Origin: a virus
DNA length: 64,000 nt
Reading direction: 5' to 3' (one strand)
Virus record (IMG/VR): IMGVR_UViG_3300032132_000001
Coordinates: 106,573-170,572 of that record
The notes under the pieces are model-generated. The model saw only the letters and a list, made by a program, of their open reading frames with translations, was not told the origin of the DNA and did no database searches. Of the stretch, positions 3,577-62,156 are shown in pieces. Numbering within the stretch: the first letter of the stretch is position 1; every line of letters begins with the position of its first letter. A program made the position numbers and the translations under genes.

Positions 3577-4382
3577 ATTATTTCCCCTGCTCTATCGAAC
3601 CCGTAAAGCCAGATATTTTCCATAGCTTTCGGGTTGAAATCTAGCACGTCGCCCAGGTGCCTCTCTGGGCTGATAATGATCAATTCCCTATTCCTACACA
3701 TTTGGGGTAGGTCGTTGCGCGCGATCTCGGATACCATAATATCTACGGTGCGCATCAAAATATCGATCAGGCCCGAAGGGTTTCTCTCTAGATGCTTGGT
3801 CTCAAGCGGGCTGTTGATTACTACTATGATCCGGTCAATGTGACGATCCCAAAGTACCGGTGCAACCGGGATAGTATCAATCAGACCTCCATCCCCGTAG
3901 TCGTCACCGTGGATGTTGACCAGAGGCATGATAGCTGGCATAGAGGCAGACGCTAGGACGTACTTCTCCCAGTTGTCCATATTCTCCATGGACGACTCGA
4001 TCCTTGCTACCATACCAGTTCTCATATTGGTAGCGGTTACGACGGCTTTCCGCCCGTTCACGTAAGCCTGTTGCAGCGCTTCTTTATCAGAGTAGCGTTC
4101 GATTAGGTTGGCGAGAGGGGAAGTATCAACGAGAGATCCGTGGACGAAAGCAGAGATTAGATCTCTATCTCTCAAAATGTCAGTATCTTCTATTCCACCT
4201 CGATAGACGTCATTTATTACTTCGATGTTGTCCAGGAGAATCGGACCTGCCATCAATGCTCCGGTCGAGGTCCCCGACACTATATCCCATCTGAAATCGT
4301 ACTGGGACATCAACCGGTAGATCGCACCCACCGCGAATGCCCCATTCCTTCCGCCTCCGCTGATTACTAATGCGTCGCTCAT
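3564..4382 (-). CDS. patatin-like phospholipase
   Basis: N-terminal GGGxxG oxyanion motif (ISGGGRNGAF), GTSTG serine lipase motif, and DGG catalytic Asp motif. Confidence 0.7.
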   Translation of the reverse strand: MSDALVISGGGRNGAFAVGAIYRLMSQYDFRWDIVSGTSTGALMAGPILLDNIEVINDVYRGGIEDTDILRDRDLISAFVHGSLVDTSPLANLIERYSDKEALQQAYVNGRKAVVTATNMRTGMVARIESSMENMDNWEKYVLASASMPAIMPLVNIHGDDYGDGGLIDTIPVAPVLWDRHIDRIIVVINSPLETKHLERNPSGLIDILMRTVDIMVSEIARNDLPQMCRNRELIIISPERHLGDVLDFNPKAMENIWLYGFDRAGEIMEAL

Positions 4383-5342: not shown

Positions 5343-5795
5343 ATGCGATTCTCGCTTCTGCTTTTGCTTCTGTTGGTTGCCTGTAGTTTATCTGGATGTA
5401 TCTCGCTCGGACAAGACGAGCGATTGACGGAAATCGCACAAGAAGAATGGTTGCGCAGTGGGCCCCCTGATATGTTCAGGTACACCTATATTAGAGGAAA
5501 ACTGTGCATTGGGTCTCCTGCCGCAAGAGGACATTTTGATGGTACTCTATCAGTATATGTCCCATGGCCTTGGAACTATTGCGAATTTATGACTCGTATC
5601 ATAATGAGATATGAGCTGAGTAAAGTAGCCTGGCAGTTACATGGGGCTCAATTAGTAGAAGAGAATGGCCCATATGCTGCGCCGGTTACGATCCCTATTT
5701 GTATGTATATGTGGCTAGATGCTGTCTTCCATCTTCCAACCAGCGAACTCCACTCTTGGTACCGTTCGTTGTTTCCTGGGGAAATTCAAAAATAG
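5343..5795 (+). CDS. putative lipoprotein
   Basis: Signal peptide with lipobox LSGC (MRFSLLLLLLLVACSLSGC). Confidence 0.55.
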   Translation: MRFSLLLLLLLVACSLSGCISLGQDERLTEIAQEEWLRSGPPDMFRYTYIRGKLCIGSPAARGHFDGTLSVYVPWPWNYCEFMTRIIMRYELSKVAWQLHGAQLVEENGPYAAPVTIPICMYMWLDAVFHLPTSELHSWYRSLFPGEIQK

Positions 5796-7291: not shown

Positions 7292-7516
7292 GTGATTACA
7301 GTAAGACGGCTTTTGCCGAAGTACAGAACAGAACAGTTAGCTGAGTTCAACTCAGTGGAGGAGGCAACTAGAGCGGTGAGAGCATTCCGCAAAGAGGGTT
7401 ATACGGGGAGTTTGGTTGTAGAGGAGTGGGAAGAGGGCTATATGGCCCACTACTATCCTCCGCTTCCAACTCGTGTATCGGTTCGGTTGTACCAGAACCG
7501 CATATACCACCCGTAG
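7292..7516 (+). CDS. hypothetical small protein (GTG start immediately after tRNA-Pro)
   Basis: 74-aa ORF filling the inter-tRNA gap. Confidence 0.3.
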   Translation: MITVRRLLPKYRTEQLAEFNSVEEATRAVRAFRKEGYTGSLVVEEWEEGYMAHYYPPLPTRVSVRLYQNRIYHP

Positions 7517-7582
7517 CTCAACTGGCAGAGCGCTTGGCTGTAAACCAAGAGGTTGTAGGTTCGACTCCTACCGGGTGGACCA
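7507..7582 (+). tRNA. tRNA with anticodon GTA (Tyr), class I type with short variable loop
   Basis: Acceptor CCACCCG/CGGGTGG, anticodon stem CTTGG/CCAAG, loop CTGTAAA, CCA encoded. Confidence 0.6.
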
Positions 7583-9457: not shown

Positions 9458-9738
9458 CGTACGACTACGAAGACAACGACGACACATACGTTTGCAGACT
9501 ACCAGGTGGGTACCATCTGTTTAGGAAGCCAAACGAAGCTGGTGGCTTCACTTATTACTCTGATGAAGTAGGTGGAGGCGTCTTCGTTTGGGACACCGGC
9601 TTGGTAGCTGACACCACCTTGATGGCAGCGATCGTAGCAGAGCAGGCAAGAGCGTTCGAAACAGAGATATTCCTCAAGAGAGAGACAAGAGACCAAGTTA
9701 ACGAGATCATAAGGGCCGACTCGGAGGACGAGGCGTGA
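9454..9738 (+). CDS. hypothetical acidic protein
   Basis: 94-aa ORF with an ATGA overlap. Confidence 0.4.
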   Translation: MTYDYEDNDDTYVCRLPGGYHLFRKPNEAGGFTYYSDEVGGGVFVWDTGLVADTTLMAAIVAEQARAFETEIFLKRETRDQVNEIIRADSEDEA

Positions 9739-9739
9739 C

Positions 9740-9812
9740 AAAGGCGACTAGTTACGGCACTTAGGTGTAGGACCTGTCACGAACGGTGGTTCAATTCCAT
9801 CTCGGTTCACCA
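9740..9812 (+). other. tRNA-like 3' fragment (T-arm GGTGG-TTCAATT-CCATC, acceptor 3' strand, CCA) with no matching 5' acceptor or anticodon arm found
   Basis: The T-loop and CCA end are canonical. The upstream 70 nt do not fold into D and anticodon arms. Confidence 0.3.
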
Positions 9813-10323: not shown

Positions 10324-10499
10324 AAGAGCTTGTCAGTAGGATTGAAGAACTGACACGAGAGAATCACGACCTGCGAAAGCAGGTCAAACAGTTGAGTAAG
10401 ACCAACATCGACGCTTTGGCATCGATGACGATCATTACTCAGAACACAGAGTTGAAAGACCTGAGGCGGCAGGTCGAGGAGTTGAAAGATGGGATATAA
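10320..10499 (+). CDS. small coiled-coil protein (59 aa, below the ORF-track cutoff)
   Basis: MKELVSRIEELTRENHDLRKQVKQL... Read by hand. ATGA overlap with the upstream gene. Confidence 0.3.
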   Translation: MKELVSRIEELTRENHDLRKQVKQLSKTNIDALASMTIITQNTELKDLRRQVEELKDGI

Positions 10500-11343
10500 A
10501 AAGATCGTGAACATGTACAAGGACACTGGAGTCCTTATGTTCCGGGAAGTCTACGCCATGGAGAAAATCCACGGCACATCCGCTCATATCAAGTACCATG
10601 AAGGGGAGATCACCTTCTTCTCTGGAGGCGGCAAACACGAGACGTTCGTAGCGCTGTTCGATCTAGAGAAGTTGGCTGAGGCTTTCAAGGCGATCGGTCA
10701 CGACGAAGTTACCATCTACGGTGAGTCCTACGGTGGCAAGCAGCAGGGTATGTCTGACACCTACGGTAAAGAGGCTCGCTTCGTAGCTTTCGAAGTGAAG
10801 GTACACGATTGCTGGCTCAATGTGCCGAACGCGCACGACGTCGTAACCAAGCTCGACCTTGAGTTCGTGCACTACGAGAAGGGCCCGGCTGAGCTTGACT
10901 GGCTCAACGAGCAACGGGACGCACCGTCTGTACAGGCGAAGCGGAACGGGATCGAAGAGGATAAGCTCCGGGAAGGTGTCGTTGTACGGCCTCTCATGGA
11001 GATGTGGAAGTCTAACGGCGAGCGGGTCATGTGCAAGCACAAGCATGATAAGTTCCGTGAGACTAAAACTCCCCGTGAGGTGGACCCTGAGAAAATGAAG
11101 GTCCTAGAAGACGCGCGGGCTGTTGCAGAAGAGTGGGTTGTAGATATGCGGCTCCAGCACGTCATGGACAAGATGGAGAAGGTGGGGGAGATGGAGCATA
11201 CCCCTCTCGTCATCAAGGCTATGATCGCTGACGTCAAGGCAGAGAGCGAGGGCGAAGTAGTATGGTCGAAGGACGTGGAGAAGGCGATCGGTCGGGCGAC
11301 AGCTCAGCTGTACAAGAAGACGGTCTCCAAGATCCCGGTGTAA
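10489..11343 (+). CDS. RNA ligase, Rnl2-like (T4 RnlB family)
   Basis: Motif I EKIHGTS (KxHGxN/S adenylation lysine), motif III YGESYGG, motif IV EGVVVRP, motif V MCKHK. Confidence 0.65.
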   Translation: MGYKKIVNMYKDTGVLMFREVYAMEKIHGTSAHIKYHEGEITFFSGGGKHETFVALFDLEKLAEAFKAIGHDEVTIYGESYGGKQQGMSDTYGKEARFVAFEVKVHDCWLNVPNAHDVVTKLDLEFVHYEKGPAELDWLNEQRDAPSVQAKRNGIEEDKLREGVVVRPLMEMWKSNGERVMCKHKHDKFRETKTPREVDPEKMKVLEDARAVAEEWVVDMRLQHVMDKMEKVGEMEHTPLVIKAMIADVKAESEGEVVWSKDVEKAIGRATAQLYKKTVSKIPV

Positions 11344-12819: not shown

Positions 12820-12894
12820 GGCCGTGTGGTAGAGTGGTTCATGCGCTAGACTGCAAATCTAGAGACCTGGGTTCGAATCCCAGCACGGCCTCCA
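12820..12894 (+). tRNA. tRNA-Cys(GCA)
   Basis: Acceptor GGCCGTG/CACGGCC, anticodon loop CTGCAAA, CCA encoded. Confidence 0.75.
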
Positions 12895-12900
12895 CGATTT

Positions 12901-12971
12901 AGGGAGGGTGCTGGGCATAGACCGGTCTCCAAAGCTAGTCCTCGCGGGTTCGATTCCCGTCCTCCCTGCCA
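12901..12971 (+). tRNA. atypical tRNA-like gene, possible Trp (CTCCAAA loop, anticodon CCA) with imperfect anticodon stem and short D-arm
   Basis: Perfect acceptor AGGGAGG/CCTCCCT, canonical T-arm GCGGG-TTCGATT-CCCGT, CCA encoded. The core does not fold canonically. Confidence 0.35.
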
Positions 12972-12978
12972 TACAATT

Positions 12979-13049
12979 AGGGGGCGGTCGGTGCCCACGC
13001 AGACCATCGAAAGTCCGTAAGCCAGGTTCGACTCCTGGGCCCCCTGCCA
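12979..13049 (+). tRNA. atypical tRNA-like gene, anticodon not assignable
   Basis: Perfect acceptor AGGGGGC/GCCCCCT, T-arm CCAGG-TTCGACT-CCTGG, CCA encoded. No canonical anticodon arm. Confidence 0.3.
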
Positions 13050-13128: not shown

Positions 13129-13205
13129 GCACCCGTAGCTCAGTGGACTAGAGCATCTCGCTACGGACGAGGGGGTCGTAGGTTCGAATCCTACCGGGTG
13201 TGCCA
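13129..13205 (+). tRNA. tRNA-Arg(ACG)
   Basis: Acceptor GCACCCG/CGGGTGT, anticodon loop CTACGGA, CCA encoded. Confidence 0.75.
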
Positions 13206-13826: not shown

Positions 13827-14330
13827 GGCAACCTACGGCAGGACCTCGATAAGCCGGTACAACATCTCAAAGATCTATATTCTGGAATCAGCGTAGGGAG
13901 AGCCAATCCGGCTCTCCTCGATGGTGTGAAGGTTGAGTGCTATGATGATCTACTCCCTCTCACCCAAATCGCATATGTGTCGATCCTAGGGCCTGAAATT
14001 CTTCAGGTTATACCTTATGATCGAGCACTCATTGGTGCTATCCGAAGAGGGTTGCACAATTCCAAGCTTCCGCTCAGCCCGACCGTAGAAGGTGATCGGC
14101 TGATCGTCAAGGTCCCGATCCCCGACATAGATGATCGGAAGAAGCTAGAGAAGCACGTCAAGAAGCTCGCTGAGGCTCAACGCGTTGCTATCAGGCAGAT
14201 CCGGCGCAAAGCGAGAAAGGCGGGCGAAAACGAAAAGACCGTTGAAGACCTGGTGAAAGAGTATATTAACAAAATAGACGACCTTCTAGCGAAGAAGGTC
14301 GAAGACCTAAACCCAAAGAGCTTCTTCTGA
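13827..14330 (+). CDS. frr: ribosome recycling factor homolog (frr-like); no canonical start codon before the GTG at 13926
   Basis: Residues align with E. coli RRF (LLDGVKVECYDD ~ LLDGIVVEYYG; AIRQIRRKARK ~ AVRNVRRDAND). The homology continues 33 codons upstream of the annotated start to the TAA. Confidence 0.55.
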   Translation, partial: GNLRQDLDKPVQHLKDLYSGISVGRANPALLDGVKVECYDDLLPLTQIAYVSILGPEILQVIPYDRALIGAIRRGLHNSKLPLSPTVEGDRLIVKVPIPDIDDRKKLEKHVKKLAEAQRVAIRQIRRKARKAGENEKTVEDLVKEYINKIDDLLAKKVEDLNPKSFF

Positions 14331-18548: not shown

Positions 18549-18669
18549 GATGCAAAAAGAACTACTAGAAGAGAAGAGAGCAGAGGAGCTTTGCCAAGCA
18601 TTACAGAATTACCTGGAGCGCATCCGGCTGGATGAGGAGCTGGTTTTGAAAACCAGTAACGGGCGTTAA
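18549..18669 (+). CDS. hypothetical small coiled-coil protein (overlaps the 5' half of the putative tRNA-Ser(TGA))
   Basis: MQKELLEEKRAEEL... The internal ATG of ORF 18472..18669. Confidence 0.2.
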
Positions 18670-18708
18670 TAGCGTCCGTTCGGGGTTCGAGTCCCTGGCG
18701 TTCCGCCA
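18615..18708 (+). tRNA. putative tRNA-Ser(TGA), class II, irregular D-arm
   Basis: Anticodon arm CTGGT-TTTGAAA-ACCAG, variable arm AACGG...CCGTT, T-arm CGGGG-TTCGAGT-CCCTG, acceptor GGAGCGC/GCGTTCC with one G-U, CCA encoded. Confidence 0.4.
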
Positions 18709-37429: not shown

Positions 37430-38608
37430 TCATTCGGGCCTCAAACACATCCTAGTTACCCATTCCAAAAATTCAGCGGGATCACATACATCATGCTTGA
37501 TGTCCCAGATCGCGACCATCTCCCGAGCCAACATGGAACAGTCTGGGTCATCACCATCTACAACGTCCTGGACCTTCTTGAAGATCTCAGTATTGTTTCC
37601 ATTAGCCACAATGGTTTTTAAGACCTCTTCAAAGGGGTCTCCAGCCTCTAAGGCTAATTTCTCTGCGCGGAGGCGCATTTTTCGCCGCCTTTGCCAATGT
37701 TTACCACCCAGACCTTTATAAGTGTCATCCCTATCTCTGCGGAACTTCCCATGTTCCGCTCTGGTAAAGATGCCCAGATTGTCTAGAGAGTTATTATGGC
37801 CGTTCCCGTCCAGATGAACCACAAACATGTCATCTACGTTGAAACCTGCTCGCTCTAAGAGCCACCGATGCTCCTGGACGCGATGGTCTTTCCCGTCATC
37901 CCCTCGCCATTTGAGCATAATAGTTTTCTGACGAGTCCAGCGGATGGGGCGTTCTGCCGTGCCAAGGTAACACGCGTCACTACACGTCTTTTTGCGCGAG
38001 TTGCTGCGAATGAAGTCGCCACAAACTGCACAACGGCGCTTTCGTTGGCCTTCTCCAGCGCAAGCAGTGCTACAGTACTTGAGCTTGGCTTGCTTCACTT
38101 CGGTTCCGCAGATCAGACAAGGCTGCCGTTTCCGCCTACCGATATATTGACATTCGGCTGAGCAGTACTTCTTCTGGCTCTGTTTCCGTGGGCCTTCACA
38201 AACTAGGCATTTCAGGTCTTTGAATTGCCTAGACGCGTTATAGCAGGTCCTGGAGCAGTATAGCCTACCAGCTCTGGGTGTAGTCCCACCGCACGTGCGA
38301 CATCGAGGGCGTCTTGGGAAGCGTGACGCGTTATAGCAGCTCTGGCTACAAAACTGTCGGTGCGGCTCTTTGACAGGCTCGCCACAGTGCTGGCACGGAT
38401 TTCGATCTTTGGTGTTATAGACCGATCTGCAGTCAGTACCGCAGACTATGCGATGAGAAGCTTTGACTGGCTTCGTGCACACCTTACATTTTGGCCACTT
38501 CTTGAAGCACTCTTTACTACAAATTGCTACTGGGCAATCTTCTATCCCCGTACCCCAATCAACGAGGTTTTGGCATATACGGCACTTTTTTCGTTGTTTT
38601 CGGCGCAT
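37430..38608 (-). CDS. HNH endonuclease with N-terminal array of ~7 tandem zinc-ribbon repeats
   Basis: Repeats of CxxCG-x9-10-(Y/F)CSxxC(Y)N. C-terminal HLDGNGHNNSLDNLGIFTRAEH HNH motif. Confidence 0.55.
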   Translation of the reverse strand: MRRKQRKKCRICQNLVDWGTGIEDCPVAICSKECFKKWPKCKVCTKPVKASHRIVCGTDCRSVYNTKDRNPCQHCGEPVKEPHRQFCSQSCYNASRFPRRPRCRTCGGTTPRAGRLYCSRTCYNASRQFKDLKCLVCEGPRKQSQKKYCSAECQYIGRRKRQPCLICGTEVKQAKLKYCSTACAGEGQRKRRCAVCGDFIRSNSRKKTCSDACYLGTAERPIRWTRQKTIMLKWRGDDGKDHRVQEHRWLLERAGFNVDDMFVVHLDGNGHNNSLDNLGIFTRAEHGKFRRDRDDTYKGLGGKHWQRRRKMRLRAEKLALEAGDPFEEVLKTIVANGNNTEIFKKVQDVVDGDDPDCSMLAREMVAIWDIKHDVCDPAEFLEWVTRMCLRPE

Positions 38609-57219: not shown

Positions 57220-59805
57220 TTAGACTCTTTCAAGGGGGATGCAAATGGTGTTTTTCCGGAGATTGAAACTCCGATACTTTTCATTCCAATTAACTTTCAT
57301 TCGGAGACCAATGCCTGGGTCGAACACCTCGTCCCCATTATTTTGCCAGGCATCGCTCCACACCATGACTTTGGCGCTCTCCACTCCGTCAGTCACGATC
57401 AGTTGGAGGAAAGTAGAGCTGGCCCCTTGACGCTCCTCTCTTTCCTCAATCACCACTTCTAAGGTCTCATGAGACCTAGCATAGTTAATAGAACATCCAT
57501 CATGCTTGAATTGATCTAACGGTGAGTTCCAATAGAACCCTAGGAAACTTTTCTCGAATTCTAAGATCTCAGTGAGAGTATAATCAAACTCAAACAACTG
57601 CATCACATGCTTGGACTGGATGACGACTTTGTTTGAAGTCTTGTACTCTTCTGCTGCTTCATCGTCCAATCTGAGCTGAGACAGGTCCTTTGCTACTTTG
57701 TCCCAGAAACCTTCATCGCCTGGGCTGCGCCGTTCCAGAATGGTAGTCTCTTTGCCCACTTTCTCAACGAACAAGACTGCATTCTCTAACACATTGAATC
57801 GAGGTTTGTCGATTGGTAGTGTGGGGACCCAGTTGGTGATCTTTACTGGTACCTTCGTCCTGTTCGGGTATTCTTTGCGCCATGCGCGCTCTTTCCGCAG
57901 CCGCTCTTCTTGGATCTCTTCGTTGGTCCAGCAATAACAGCACCGAATCAGCCGTCTCAGGGCTGTCATGTAGGTGCCAGACCCGTGCTTGTATAGGTAC
58001 CACATCCACAAGGCTTTCTTGTTGTCGTGCTTGGCTCGGAAACCACCAAGCTTGATCAGCCGTTCAAGTACCGTTTTGCTTTTGCCGTGTCTCTCTACGA
58101 AGTGGTCCAAGCTGTCGTACGGACCCTTCCCGGAGAACTCTTTTGCTGCGCTTTCTCCGATGCCCTTCACGCCCATCAGACCGGGAGTGACGTGATCACC
58201 GAGAACTGTGAATTTAGTGGTCAGCTTGTCACAGTGCATATCTGTGAACTCTACGCCCTCTGCACGCGCCACACTCATATACCGCTTCAGCTTTTCTGAG
58301 TGACAGTCGGACATCACTGCTGCCCACCACTCTGCTGGGAAGTGTGCCTTCAACCAGATGCAGCGATAAGCGATGGTAATGTAAGCGCTCACGTGGCTGA
58401 CGTTGAAGGCGTAGCGACCGAAGGTGACCATCTTCTCCCACCATTCTTTGGCGCTCTCTTCTCCAAGCGTTTTGGATGCTCCGCGCAGCCACTTCTCTTC
58501 GATTGGTACTAGTTTCTCAACCCACTTTTTGGCGACTGCTTTCCTGGCTGCTTCTGCCTCGGGCGCTGTGAAACCCGCGAGCTTCCGCCAGATAGTAGCA
58601 AGCTGCTCTTGATAGACGATTACCCCGTACGTGTCTCCCAAGATGTCGATGATTCGCTCATCTTCACCGTCCATCCACTTGCTTTCGTCGATTCGCTCAC
58701 CGGTCTCACCATCTACTCTCACCTTGCCGTCCCGGCGCGCGATGTACACGTCTACCATGGGTAGTGGGCCAGGGCGACCGAGAGCTGAATAAACGACGAG
58801 GTCCTTGAATTCCTTTACCCCGCCTTTCTGGATGATCGACTTAGATAGTTCAGTCTCGAACTGGAAGATAGAGTCTACCTGCACTCGATCAGCTGACTGG
58901 ATGGCTTTCTCATCGTTGAACAAGATGGGGTGGTCGCCCTTCTCATCTTTCTGCCATCCAGCACGATCTACGTCTGGGTCCATGTCTTCCCAGTCGATTT
59001 CGATGCCCCGGTTCTCTTTGATGAGGTTACAAGCTGTCCAGATGTACAGGAGATTCTTCAAGCCGAGGAAGTCGAACTTGATAAACCCAAACTTAGACAG
59101 CTGTGTATTACGACCTTCTGTCCAGGCGGAGGTCCAGACATCGTTACTCATAGTGAGCGGAAGGTGGTCCCGCACTGGGACGCTGGAGATGATCAGACCG
59201 CCAGCATGTCTCAGCTGGGTCTTGATCATGCCCTTCATCCGATAGGCGATATCTACTAGATCTTTATTATCTTCATAGAATTTCTTGAAAGCCTCAAACT
59301 CATCCAAGGCTTGTTTCAGCGTCAGATCATCAAACGCCTGAGGCAGCTCTCTCGTCAGAGCTATTGACTTATGTCTATCATAGCCGAGAGCAGGAGCAGC
59401 ATCTTGCAACGCCAATTTCGGGCCATAAGTCTGCCAAGCCCCGACTGCACATACTTTATCAGCACCATATTGCTGAATCGCGAATTCCCGGACAGGCCCG
59501 CGCGCATGGGGGAGAAAGTCAATATCGATGTCCGGGAAGTCAGGCTGATACTGAATGTTATGCTCTATACCTTCAGCTATTGGGTCTATCCTAGTGATGC
59601 CCAGCAACCAAGGGAGAACCAGCCCGTTGTCGTTGTGATCGAAGGTCTTCTCTGCATTGAGTAGTTCTACCCAATAATCAGATGCACCTTGCTTGTTTAT
59701 TTCTTTGAATTCGAATAATAGACGGTCTTTATATTCCCCGTCTAGCTTCCTTTTGAGAAGCTCTTGTGCAGCTCTCTTCTGCACATCTGCCCACTCTATG
59801 CTCAT
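57220..59805 (-). CDS. dnaE: DNA polymerase III alpha (DnaE-type) C-terminal fragment: catalytic palm/fingers onward
   Basis: PDFPDIDIDF catalytic Asp motif. GFIKFDFLGLKNL ~ E. coli LVKFDFLGLRTL. RPGPLPMVD ~ RPGPLQSGMVD. Confidence 0.75.
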   Translation of the reverse strand: MSIEWADVQKRAAQELLKRKLDGEYKDRLLFEFKEINKQGASDYWVELLNAEKTFDHNDNGLVLPWLLGITRIDPIAEGIEHNIQYQPDFPDIDIDFLPHARGPVREFAIQQYGADKVCAVGAWQTYGPKLALQDAAPALGYDRHKSIALTRELPQAFDDLTLKQALDEFEAFKKFYEDNKDLVDIAYRMKGMIKTQLRHAGGLIISSVPVRDHLPLTMSNDVWTSAWTEGRNTQLSKFGFIKFDFLGLKNLLYIWTACNLIKENRGIEIDWEDMDPDVDRAGWQKDEKGDHPILFNDEKAIQSADRVQVDSIFQFETELSKSIIQKGGVKEFKDLVVYSALGRPGPLPMVDVYIARRDGKVRVDGETGERIDESKWMDGEDERIIDILGDTYGVIVYQEQLATIWRKLAGFTAPEAEAARKAVAKKWVEKLVPIEEKWLRGASKTLGEESAKEWWEKMVTFGRYAFNVSHVSAYITIAYRCIWLKAHFPAEWWAAVMSDCHSEKLKRYMSVARAEGVEFTDMHCDKLTTKFTVLGDHVTPGLMGVKGIGESAAKEFSGKGPYDSLDHFVERHGKSKTVLERLIKLGGFRAKHDNKKALWMWYLYKHGSGTYMTALRRLIRCCYCWTNEEIQEERLRKERAWRKEYPNRTKVPVKITNWVPTLPIDKPRFNVLENAVLFVEKVGKETTILERRSPGDEGFWDKVAKDLSQLRLDDEAAEEYKTSNKVVIQSKHVMQLFEFDYTLTEILEFEKSFLGFYWNSPLDQFKHDGCSINYARSHETLEVVIEEREERQGASSTFLQLIVTDGVESAKVMVWSDAWQNNGDEVFDPGIGLRMKVNWNEKYRSFNLRKNTICIPLERV

Positions 59806-60218: not shown

Positions 60219-60669
60219 CGTTGGCCTCCGTATTGGTCACCATATTTACATATGGCTTCACCCTACGAAACTTCGTACCATTATGTTGCTCTATCTTGAG
60301 GAAAAGAGCATTTACAAGATCAATAGCTGCTCTTTTCCCTCGGAGGCCCTTCAGAGATCTAACATAACCAAGCCCTTCCACCGGATCAGCATACCACTTA
60401 AGATTGTTACAGTGGTCAACTACGGCTTCGGCAATCCACAGCATGGGGAGATAGGCGATTTCGTTCAAATCGTCCCGGACTGTATTTAGATGCTTAACAT
60501 CTCCAGTTTCTACAAATTGAAGGTAGGCATCGCATACATCAGGCCATTTGAAAGCTAGAATATCTCCACGGCTGCCGAAAGTCCCAGCCATACCGGCTTG
60601 GGTTGCCATAGAATGCTTAGCTTCATTATGAAGCGTGTGCAGGACTTCAAGCACTTTGTCGTCGATCAC
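60175..60669 (-). CDS. hypothetical protein inside the dnaE split
   Basis: 164-aa ORF. Confidence 0.35.
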   Translation of the reverse strand: MIDDKVLEVLHTLHNEAKHSMATQAGMAGTFGSRGDILAFKWPDVCDAYLQFVETGDVKHLNTVRDDLNEIAYLPMLWIAEAVVDHCNNLKWYADPVEGLGYVRSLKGLRGKRAAIDLVNALFLKIEQHNGTKFRRVKPYVNMVTNTEANDEHSSIHNRVHQDG

Positions 60670-62156
60670 ATCGTCACCTGTAACATGTTTCCGCCACGGC
60701 TGGGTGACAGGAAGCGGTCAAAGCTCAACCCCCACTTCAGCGGATCCATGTCGTGGATCCCGAGCGCGAAGCACACCACGCTCCCGCCTGCGCTGCCCCG
60801 AGCAGGACCAATAGGCCAACCTGAATCGCGGGAGAATTTCACCAGCTCTTCTGTGATCAAGAAGTATGAAGCGAACCCCTTGTCAATGAACCGCTTTAGT
60901 TCGATCTCTGTCTGCTCTAAGTGGGTTACCATTCGGTTGTCGATTTCGTACTTCTTCTCTGAGTTTAGAATACCTCTCCACTCTAGACCTTTCATTGTCT
61001 GCGCTCGCAGACGTTCATTGGCGTCTGCGATTTCAGGAAGCTTTGGGTCTAGGTCAGGATCGAATGTCTGACACATCCCTGCGACCATCAGAGTGTTTTC
61101 ACAGCTTGTTTCGAAGTCTGTCAATGTCGAATGCTGATCATACCCACCCTCTAGGTAGGTCTGTCTGAGTTGTGCTCGCGTCTTCATGAACTGGTTGTCA
61201 GAGTTGACGTGAAAAAGCTGGTCTTCCCATCCGTCCTTGCTCAAGTCCACACCCTGAGAGATCGCCATCATTGTCAGCTGAAGCTGGAAGTCGCGACGTT
61301 CCAAATAGTGTACATCGTTCGTGAGGACGCTTGGAATCTTCCGCTTCTTACTCATCCTATTCAGATGCCAGAAGATCTGTTGCTGGTTGGGGATGTCTGG
61401 GCCTGGCATCTGGAGTTCGATGAAGTAATGGTCGCCGAAGATCTCTCGGAAACGATCTACTAACGCATTCGCGTTGTGCCAGAATTCCTTGATTTTAGCT
61501 GGCTTCTTGTCCCTTATTGATTCTTCCATTCTCCAGAATTCATGTGCCACTGGACCGTTGAGGCAACCGGAAAGGACAATTAGACCTTCCCGATGCTCAT
61601 CCAACTTGTCCAGCCAGATCCTGGGCTTGTTGATGAAAGTATGCTGCCAAGCCTGGGATGTCAGCTGAATCAGGTTCTTATATCCGACCATATCCTTGGC
61701 AAGCACTGTGAGGTGCCGGTTGCGCCTGAATCTTGCTGCGAGGTCGGGCTCTTCTTCTTTGAAGGCTTGCAGTTTGTCTGGTAGCTCTACCGTTTCTCCA
61801 CCGCGCAGGTACGGATGTGGCAGGACTACCGGTTCTCCAGCGCGTCTCGCTTCATTCGCGTGATAGTAATCGCAGTAGTAGATCTCACAGCCTGGTATGA
61901 ACTTGATATCATGAGCCTTTGCGGCCCAGTATGCATCGGGAAAAGAAGAAAGCTGGCCGTGGTCCGTAATAGCCATGGCCGGCATCTCAAACTCTGCACA
62001 CCGTTCGAAGAGCGCATCGGGAGTCGCGACACCATCGAGCGGACTGAAAATGGTATGCAAATGGAGATGTGCGAAACCGGTTGGACCTGGATATTGTTCA
62101 GCTGCTTTCGCAGCTTCGGTTTTGGCTATGCTTTCGGTCATCGTAGGTCCTAACAA
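60666..62156 (-). CDS. dnaE: DNA polymerase III alpha (DnaE-type) N-terminal fragment: PHP domain to just before the catalytic aspartates
   Basis: HLHLHTIFSPLDG PHP motif. C-terminus GPARGSAGGSVVCFALGIHDMDPLKWGLSFDRFLSPSR ~ E. coli [38 protein letters not shown]. Confidence 0.75.
   Translation of the reverse strand: MLGPTMTESIAKTEAAKAAEQYPGPTGFAHLHLHTIFSPLDGVATPDALFERCAEFEMPAMAITDHGQLSSFPDAYWAAKAHDIKFIPGCEIYYCDYYHANEARRAGEPVVLPHPYLRGGETVELPDKLQAFKEEEPDLAARFRRNRHLTVLAKDMVGYKNLIQLTSQAWQHTFINKPRIWLDKLDEHREGLIVLSGCLNGPVAHEFWRMEESIRDKKPAKIKEFWHNANALVDRFREIFGDHYFIELQMPGPDIPNQQQIFWHLNRMSKKRKIPSVLTNDVHYLERRDFQLQLTMMAISQGVDLSKDGWEDQLFHVNSDNQFMKTRAQLRQTYLEGGYDQHSTLTDFETSCENTLMVAGMCQTFDPDLDPKLPEIADANERLRAQTMKGLEWRGILNSEKKYEIDNRMVTHLEQTEIELKRFIDKGFASYFLITEELVKFSRDSGWPIGPARGSAGGSVVCFALGIHDMDPLKWGLSFDRFLSPSRGGNMLQVTM

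Follow-up and report, generated by a model that had tools for sequence, protein, structure and literature searches.

A probable compact-core tRNA-Trp and its divergent sister element in a phage tRNA cluster

The known transfer RNAs (tRNAs) whose architecture comes closest to the compact core described here are tRNAPyl and a mitochondrial serine tRNA. In tRNAPyl, a 6-base-pair (bp) anticodon stem is combined with a variable loop of 3 nucleotides (nt), a small D-loop, and an acceptor–D linker of at most one nucleotide (Krahn et al., PMC7609411); its hallmarks further include the CUA anticodon, a G1:C72 pair and the lack of G18G19 and T-Psi-C (PMC7609411). The tRNAPyl of Methanomethylophilus alvus has no linker at all, a 4-nt D-loop, and an anticodon stem that is broken by an unpaired A (PMC7609411). 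Mammalian mt-tRNASer(UCN), a "type I" mitochondrial (mt) tRNA, has a compact layout like that of tRNAPyl, yet keeps G18/G19 and T-Psi-C (PMC7609411). Among tRNA-Trp(CCA) molecules, the Hirsh D-arm suppressor and a tRNATrp with a 4-bp anticodon stem are body-altered variants that read UGA (PMC13092985). Here we analyse two adjacent tRNA-like elements, E1 and E2, in a 64,000-nt stretch of the virus record IMGVR_UViG_3300032132_000001 (positions 106,573 to 170,572), which is referred to as the window and to which coordinates apply unless another locus is named. From sequence comparison and predicted structure, E1 is probably a functional compact-core tryptophan tRNA, and E2 a sister element that is most likely decaying or non-decoding; we assign a probability of roughly 0.6 to this reading.

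E1 comprises the following parts:

12901–12971, + strand: E1, predicted compact tRNA-Trp(CCA), 71 nt including the encoded CCA (ARAGORN, tRNA-Trp(cca); covariance model R1, 72.0 bits, E=2e-16; RNAfold)
12901–12907, + strand: acceptor stem 5' strand AGGGAGG, pairing with 12961–12967 (sequence)
12908–12918, + strand: D hairpin GUGC-UGG-GCAU (RNAfold minimum-energy structure; family covariation at 8:18 and 9:17)
12921–12939, + strand: anticodon arm with 6-bp stem ACCGGU/GCUAGU and 7-nt loop CUCCAAA, anticodon CCA at 12929–12931 (ARAGORN, R1)
12940–12943, + strand: variable loop of 4 nt, CCUC (alignment to R1)
12944–12960, + strand: T-arm GCGGG-UUCGAUU-CCCGU (sequence, ARAGORN, R1)
12961–12971, + strand: acceptor 3' strand CCUCCCU, G73 (12968) and CCA (12969–12971) (sequence)

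A sequence-only reading of the window had described two neighbouring elements with perfect acceptor and T-arms around a 34-nt core that could not be folded into D and anticodon arms. The sequence bears out the positions and the 71-nt length of each element, the perfect 7-bp Watson-Crick acceptor stems (AGGGAGG/CCTCCCT in E1, AGGGGGC/GCCCCCT in E2), the canonical T-arms (GCGGG-TTCGATT-CCCGT with one G.T pair, and CCAGG-TTCGACT-CCTGG), and the encoded CCA and discriminator G in both. The Trp anticodon loop CTCCAAA is likewise present in E1, at 12927–12933, and the 13-mer ACCGGTCTCCAAA is identical to E. coli tRNA-Trp. As for the core, the description was wrong on three counts. From the acceptor 5' strand to the T stem there are 36 nt, and in E1 these can be folded, since ARAGORN with its default parameters recognises tRNA-Trp(cca) and places the anticodon at position 29 of the element, and the RNAfold minimum-energy structure is a compact cloverleaf. 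G8, in place of the canonical U8, pairs within the D stem, and the two-nucleotide 8/9 linker is missing; the stem has 4 bp (G.U, U:A, G:C, C:G), a 3-nt UGG loop where canonical tRNAs have 7–11 nt, and a 2-nt linker to the anticodon arm. The 3' strand of the anticodon stem, supposed to be unpaired, pairs as A:U, C:G, C.A, G.U, G:C, and U.G, with one C.A mismatch, below a canonical 7-nt loop with U33. An alternative 8/4 drawing of E1 by ARAGORN hinges on a G.U pair; the acceptor/T arrangement of tRNA-Sec is 8/5 or 9/4.

The label "non-canonical" nevertheless holds. With the Rfam tRNA model (RF00005), E1 scores 18.5 bits against a curated gathering threshold of 29 bits, and E2 gives no match at E<=10, whereas the 20 canonical tRNAs in the window score 51.7–76.8 bits. 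The 7-bp acceptor stem, the 5-bp T stem, and the GTTCRANNC loop of RF00005 are present in both elements. The best match within the Rfam clan is tRNA-Sec (RF01852) for both, at 24.6 bits for E1 and 16.2 bits for E2 against a threshold of 47 bits; membership of the tRNA-Sec or allo-tRNA groups was rejected, as neither element has a UCA anticodon or a long arm. A chance origin of the two elements can be excluded, because 19 elements in the window pass a mechanical scan (7/7 acceptor pairs, 5/5 T-stem pairs, and a TTCRA loop) compared with a mean of 0.075 in 200 shuffles.

The strongest argument for E1 comes from a family of similar genes. A first scan of IMG/VR looked for Trp-like genes whose 5' half is shortened, and a second one for the D-arm motif of E1, using the pattern GCTGGGC, 9–11 nt, CTCCAAA, 12–14 nt, GGTTCGA. 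The motif scan retrieved 57 contigs with the layout of E1, a number that refers to one strict motif, as further D-arm variants exist. In the common layout, an acceptor stem of 7 bp leads without a linker into a 4-bp D stem that is capped by a UGG triloop; a linker of 2 nt connects this to the 6-bp anticodon stem and its CUCCAAA loop, after which come a variable loop of 4 nt, a normal T-arm, and G73, often followed by CCA. E1 matches this layout position by position. In an alignment of 32 sequences, 94.7% of the cells are standard pairs, compared with 66.7% in shuffles and about 40% in controls with slid 3' partners, and double-sided changes occur in 18 of 22 pairs. The D-stem pairs 8:18 and 9:17 covary (UA, CG, GC, AU), as do all six pairs of the anticodon stem. 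Mismatches in the latter are found in other family members too, the helix being 88% paired overall, and at the column of the single E1 mismatch (C.A, 23:37), U.G or G.U occurs in 18 of the 32 aligned sequences; an A+.C wobble at this position would be isosteric with G.U.

A covariance model, R1, was built from 29 family members with E1 and E2 left out. It scores E1 at 72.0 bits, well inside the range of the family members themselves (45–91 bits). The residues that define the family D arm (G10 C11 U12 G13 G14 G15 C16, with complementary 8:18 and 9:17) are all found in E1, as GUGCUGGGCAU, together with the CUCCAAA loop and G73; every family-invariant position is kept, and the mismatches of E1 are within the family range. 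The tested family members are also below the Rfam tRNA threshold, with tRNA-Sec at 23–27 bits or tRNA at <=25.7 bits as the best match, which indicates that the low generic score of E1 reflects the family and does not result from decay.

The closest relatives retrieved, the loci L087 and L089, have 65–66% identity in the neighbouring AAA ATPase and are rich in tRNA genes (35 ARAGORN calls in L087, i.e., 34 tRNAs and a tmRNA, and 21 in L089). Both have a single Trp gene, a compact one whose D arm is CTTC-TGG-GAAG, and according to ARAGORN E1 is likewise the sole Trp tRNA in the visible cluster of the window. Elements like E1 or E2 are absent from the loci L001–L003, which are related through an AAA ATPase of about 55% identity, and exact 22-mers of the E1 and E2 cores have no match in IMG/VR. 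A family member is present in a cultured phage, Acinetobacter phage Mithridates, where it is unannotated (L095 127–197, corresponding to MW316731.1 28095–28165). This element scores 80.3 bits with R1, is not called by ARAGORN, has tRNA-Sec as its best Rfam match (25.7 bits), and is also matched in phage AM24 (KY000079.2). In bacterial and archaeal genomes (596 Gbp), the motif occurs only 41 times, mostly in metagenome-assembled genomes, a rarity that makes the family look phage- or mobile-element-associated; five of nine inspected bacterial or archaeal loci lie among other tRNA genes. Blastn matches of E1 to Mycobacterium phages were set aside, since they are next to an integrase gene and resemble tRNA fragments of the attP type. 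No description of a compact phage Trp family was found in the literature, which is no proof of absence; the structural form of E1 is conserved and apparently undescribed.

In bacteria, tryptophan identity depends on G73, the CCA anticodon, A1:U72, G2:C71, G3:C70, and G4:C69 (Giege and Eriani, PMC9976931), and E1 carries this set in full. The anticodon-arm 5' half, ACCGGUCUCCAAA, is identical to that of E. coli trpT, with which E1 also shares A1:U72, G2–G4, G73, CCA, and a canonical T-loop. Unlike E1, the canonical bacterial tRNA-Trp, which is 5 nt longer, has U8/A9 and A26, a loop of 8 nt on its 4-bp D stem, a perfect anticodon stem of 5 bp, and a variable loop of 5 nt. Features that E1 shares with tRNAPyl, especially the M. 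alvus type, are an acceptor–D linker of no more than 1 nt, a very small D-loop, a 6-bp anticodon stem in which an unpaired base or a break is tolerated, a variable loop of 3–4 nt, G73, and a compact core that should still be capable of the L-shape. The two differ in that E1 has the anticodon CCA, reading UGG, instead of CUA for UAG, A1:U72 instead of G1:C72, and a D-loop of 3 nt instead of 4–5 nt; E1 also keeps the D-loop GG and the GTTCGA T-loop, and no pyrrolysyl-tRNA synthetase is involved. E1 is not a member of tRNAPyl, the resemblance being in architecture only. With mt-tRNASer(UCN), E1 shares the shortened acceptor–D linker, the small D-loop, the 6-bp anticodon stem, the short variable region, G18/G19, and T-Psi-C, but it is phage-encoded, has Trp identity, zero linker nucleotides instead of one, and a D triloop. 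As for the Hirsh-type tRNATrp variants, the CCA anticodon and the altered D arm and anticodon stem are points in common, and C.A pairing is considered in that work (PMC13092985). The anticodon stem of E1 is however longer (6 bp) than that of the 4-bp-stem tRNATrp, and the window shows no sign of UGA recoding, as code 11 already covers 92% of it in long open reading frames (ORFs). Stop-codon recoding as the need for an unusual Trp tRNA was rejected, because reading TGA as Trp brings no specific gain in this coverage.

E2 has the following parts:

12979–13049, + strand: E2, tRNA-like element with a compact 71-nt outline, a Trp-type acceptor stem and a divergent core (no ARAGORN call at default; R1, 39.4 bits)
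12986–12996, + strand: D-like hairpin GGUC-GGU-GCCC with 3 of 4 pairs, U10.C16 breaking the family-invariant 10:16 G:C pair (R1 alignment)
12999–13018, + strand: anticodon-like arm, GCAGAC/GUCCGU around the 8-nt loop CAUCGAAA at 13005–13012 (R1 alignment)
13022–13049, + strand: T-arm CCAGG-UUCGACU-CCUGG, acceptor 3' strand GCCCCCU, G73 and CCA (sequence)

The layout of E2 is like that of E1, with no 8/9 linker and a 3-nt D-loop, and its acceptor stem contains the complete Trp set including G5:C68. R1 aligns E2 end to end, with one inserted loop base and one deleted base in the variable region, and the resulting 39.4 bits fall in the range of other compact non-Trp phage tRNAs (39–48 bits). The lower half is where E2 departs from the family. 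The D arm reads UCGGUGC instead of the consensus GCUGGGC; the segment GGUCGGUGCCC deviates at positions 10, 12, and 14, and the otherwise invariant 10:16 pair is lost. In the anticodon-like stem, the six positions are G.U, C:G, A.C, G:C, A:U, and C:G, and the loop differs from CUCCAAA by one insertion and the change of C35 to G. ARAGORN finds E2 only at relaxed thresholds and with a malformed loop. In the minimum-energy fold, 12986–12989 pair with 13002–13005 and 13006–13021 are largely single-stranded, and the cloverleaf is about 6 kcal/mol less stable. The asymmetry is also evident from comparison with family members, with which E2 agrees at as many as 19 of the 24 acceptor and T-stem positions, but at only 13–18 of 37 in the core, where E1 matches at about 27 of 37.

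Searches for homologues of E2 gave no match by blastn among 50,697 phage records, and no counterpart in L087 or L089. In IMG/VR and the JGI metagenomes, E2 patterns returned nothing beyond Ser variable arms, an attP-like tRNA fragment, and chance matches; the loop patterns gave two tRNA-Ser(GCT) variable arms and the attP-like fragment in IMG/VR, and two chance matches in coding DNA in JGI. The loop sequence CATCGAAAG recurs in the variable arms of phage tRNA-Ser(GCT) (L084, L086). An origin of E2 from a tRNA-Ser that lost its D and anticodon arms was rejected, as the three Ser tRNAs of this phage have different arms and the acceptor stems GGAGAGG/GGAGCGC. Natural 8-nt anticodon loops occur in frameshift suppressors of the sufD/sufJ type and in yeast mt-tRNAThr1, in which the cloverleaf is otherwise intact and U33 is present. 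E2 resembles these tRNAs in that its best cloverleaf needs an 8-nt loop, but differs from them by the broken D-stem pair, the A.C mismatch, and the more stable non-cloverleaf fold.

The observation that two unusual elements lie side by side is real, and the caution with which it was first described is justified. The options then offered were degenerate tRNAs, structurally divergent functional tRNAs, and decoys, guides, or primers, and they fare differently for the two elements. E1 fits the structurally divergent functional tRNA, a choice strongly supported by the family with its covariation and by the position as the only Trp tRNA in the cluster. E2 leans towards the degenerate or non-decoding option, for which the lack of homologues, the broken D-stem pair, the 8-nt loop, and the non-cloverleaf minimum-energy fold speak, although not decisively. 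Decoy, guide, and primer functions find no support, there being no complement to the exposed segment of E2 at a second site in the window and no conserved partner; a 6-nt complementarity between the D regions of E1 and E2 (TGGGCA/TGCCCA) was dismissed as a guide signal, being within chance by a hand estimate. The two elements differ, with E1 probably having an ordinary Trp-decoding function in an unusual structural form and E2 being a one-off sibling. E1 would be co-transcribed with the neighbouring genes and released by RNase P and 3' trimming to the encoded CCA, after which the two Gs of the triloop would dock on the T-loop to give the L-shape, as in tRNAPyl and mt-tRNASer(UCN); the tRNA would then be charged by the host tryptophanyl-tRNA synthetase (TrpRS) and read UGG. 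E2 probably derives from a compact Trp gene, the acceptor–T half having stayed intact while the lower half diverged, and most likely no longer decodes, being either a decaying pseudogene or a processed tRNA-like by-product.

Several observations weigh against this account. The alignment seed pattern fixes GCTGGGC, CTCCAAA, and GGTTCGA and the rows were filtered for good acceptor pairing, so that the invariance of the D-arm core GCUGGGC and other seeded sites, as well as the acceptor-helix statistics, are partly by construction; the selection did not extend to the outer pairs of the D stem, the anticodon stem, or the T stem. The fold energy of E1 is no better than that of shuffled sequence (z = -0.07), and its anticodon stem is weak, with one C.A and three G.U pairs. 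For E2, 39.4 bits barely exceed the 37.1 bits that R1 gives to a canonical tRNA-Arg in the window and do not separate it from canonical tRNAs. Its 12-bp acceptor–T helix, T-loop, G73, and CCA are flawless, which is somewhat unexpected for a neutral pseudogene, and simple decay is at odds with the comparison to E1, from which E2 differs in 4 of 12 acceptor and T-stem pairs without losing the pairing at any of them. Furthermore, the A.C of E2 is in the same stem column as the C.A of E1 and the G.U of the family, a coincidence that hints at a retained structural constraint on E2.

The fold energy and the weak anticodon stem of E1 (one mismatch and three wobble pairs), together with the scores of both elements below the Rfam tRNA threshold, would also suit a pair of dead tRNA pseudogenes, the remains of duplication and decay in a tRNA cluster that evolves fast. 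Such a fate of both elements is very improbable. E1 reaches 72 bits against an independently built family model, keeps all family-invariant positions with mismatches inside the family range, and would be the sole Trp tRNA of an otherwise broad set, and the relatives have no Trp tRNA other than one of this compact type. With respect to E2, decay or a non-decoding state of the paralogue ranks as most likely, ahead of a retained tRNA-like RNA (processing signal or decoy), and decoding with an 8-nt loop comes last. That both elements are decoding tRNAs, E2 being a compact one with an enlarged anticodon loop, is unlikely. E2 would then read UCG via the anticodon CGA with an extra A between positions 32 and 33, or the four-base codon UCGA in the manner of +1 frameshift suppressors. 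The perfect acceptor stem, T-arm, G73, and CCA, the preserved pairing at all four stem pairs that differ from E1, the A.C at the column of the E1 C.A, where the family mostly has G.U, and a loop that is a standard CUCGAAA save for the extra A all speak for decoding, and ARAGORN reports four-base anticodons, i.e., 8-nt anticodon loops, in other phage clusters (L002 3672–3743, gtgg; L020 46–142, agtc). L002 is a relative at 55% AAA ATPase identity. A decoding E2 would however have to refold from a non-cloverleaf minimum at a cost of about 6 kcal/mol with the invariant D-stem pair broken, and it lacks homologues in every searched collection, including the two closest relatives. By the identity rules (PMC9976931), a Trp-type acceptor with a non-CCA anticodon is expected to be a poor TrpRS substrate, and E2 is without the long arm that seryl-tRNA synthetase needs.

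Somewhat more credible, if still doubtful, is that E2 is retained without decoding, as a tRNA-like RNA whose acceptor–T minihelix is the only part that matters, either as punctuation for RNase P and CCA processing in a polycistron or as a decoy for a host tRNA-targeting nuclease or a tRNA-Trp-binding enzyme. The asymmetric conservation between the two halves would be explained, and E2 is located inside an uninterrupted + strand run of tRNA genes without a promoter- or terminator-like site from tRNA-Cys to tRNA-Arg. An RNA ligase gene, typical of conflicts over tRNA repair, is found 1.6 kb upstream, and tRNA-cleaving defences can be countered by tRNAs that phages encode (PMC10264068, PMC11555353, PMC11464382). 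Uncalled elements with perfect acceptor and T-arms are common in phage clusters (49 against 617 ARAGORN calls). On the other hand, no conserved counterpart of E2 was found in the collections searched, no partner or target came to light, the window contains no complement, and an anticodon-nuclease decoy should resemble a genuine anticodon loop. The reading of E1 as a compact tRNA-Trp with a decaying or non-decoding sister is kept here as the preferred one.

We also consider, as a speculation and a little less probable than decoding by both elements, that phages carry an unrecognised class of tRNAs with a tRNAPyl-like core, represented by Trp here and by Tyr, Cys, Arg, and Met in related loci. 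The altered elbow and D region could be adaptive, for instance by conferring invisibility to host tRNA-cleaving defences or changed decoding near stop codons; E2 would be a deliberate anticodon-altered derivative, either an 8-nt-loop decoder or a Trp-acceptor decoy alongside E1. Compact tRNAs for other amino acids do exist in the loci retrieved. A 71-nt tRNA-Tyr(GTA) with the D hairpin AGTGA-TGG-TCACT and no long variable arm (L087 5319–5389, L089 4195–4265) has the same compact scaffold serving another amino acid, and the 78 phage or viral loci also contain compact tRNAs, about 71 nt long and with a short D-loop that includes GG, for Cys(GCA), Arg(CCT/CCG), and others (for example L066 2233–2303, L063 2492–2562, L059 911–981, and L011 1223–1296). 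The tRNA-Tyr of the window itself (7507–7582) lacks the long arm typical of bacterial Tyr tRNAs.

In E1, a standard amino acid would be served by a tRNAPyl-like compact-core tRNA in phage–bacterial systems. The compact Trp family is widespread, missed by general covariance models, and unannotated in at least one cultured phage, and inventories of phage tRNAs, as well as arguments built on codon usage, therefore undercount Trp and probably other isoacceptors. As compact-core tRNAs are presumably accepted by the bacterial ribosome and TrpRS, they are of interest for orthogonal tRNA engineering, and also to work on tRNA-targeting antiphage nucleases. E2 matters less, as an example of the frequent elements in phage clusters that combine a perfect acceptor and T-arm with a senseless lower half. 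Elements like E1 and E2 are not rare, since the 78 loci contain 49 uncalled ones with a perfect acceptor stem and T-arm beside 617 ARAGORN calls. An adjacent pair of this kind, at 4011–4083 and 4088–4160 of an unrelated 59-kb viral contig (L030), resembles the E1/E2 tandem. Both elements are compact, end in G-CCA, and are uncalled by ARAGORN; their loops suggest the anticodons UCU and CCU, and the anticodon stems have central mismatches, including A.C at the third pair.

The gene content of the window is that of a huge phage, and includes a split DnaE-type polymerase, a DnaB helicase, NAMPT with a NUDIX protein, an RNA ligase, a short ribosome-recycling-factor homologue, and a caspase-like protease; the best phage match of the split polymerase is in a 595-kb uncultured phage. 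The 22 tRNA genes that ARAGORN identifies lie between 7.2 and 29 kb, and every one of them is on the + strand. E1 and E2 are located between two bona fide tRNA genes, as had been noted from the sequence, and a search of the + strand from the first to the second of these revealed no promoter-like or terminator-like site:

12820–12894, + strand: tRNA-Cys(GCA), canonical flank (ARAGORN; Rfam tRNA, 66.2 bits)
13129–13205, + strand: tRNA-Arg(ACG), canonical flank (ARAGORN; Rfam tRNA, 61.9 bits)

The window corresponds to contig k141_244429 (397,419 bp) of the ENA assembly ERZ27248692. The 5.1 kb around E1 and E2 are found as an identical stretch in the Logan assembly of SRR9663116.

A third tRNA-like element, at 9714–9812 (+), is missed by ARAGORN and by Rfam at the gathering threshold, and scores 13.6 bits with R1. 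The acceptor stem (GGGCCGA/TCGGTTC) is directly followed by the D hairpin CUCG-GAGGA-CGAG, and a 6-bp stem, GUGACA/UGUCAC, encloses about 34–35 nt in place of an anticodon loop; the T-arm GGTGG-TTCAATT-CCATC is followed by A and CCA. It could represent a compact tRNA that is interrupted by a short insertion or an intron. The RNA ligase gene (10489–11343) is just downstream. In L089, a tRNA-Asn(GTT) at 5643–5735 has an insertion of about 20 nt in the anticodon loop, and the orthologue in L087 (7445–7518) is uninterrupted. The tRNA-Asn(GTT) and the element at 9714–9812 together suggest that short anticodon-loop insertions occur in this phage lineage. A tRNA-Ser(TGA) called by ARAGORN at 18615–18708 (+) is also below the Rfam tRNA gathering score, and has a 3-bp D stem and an unusual acceptor–D junction.

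Inside the tRNA cluster, at 13926–14330 (+), is the gene for the ribosome recycling factor (RRF) homologue, a short protein of 134 amino acids (Pfam RRF, 91.5 bits). A 99%-identical copy is present on a JGI contig of 395,473 bp, and a near-identical strain therefore exists. The DnaE-type DNA polymerase III alpha is split into two ORFs at 57220–59805 (-) and 60666–62156 (-), separated by about 860 bp with small ORFs; one contains the PHP domain and the start of the NTPase domain, and the other the remaining NTPase domain and the finger and HhH domains. An ORF for an HNH endonuclease is located at 37430–38608.

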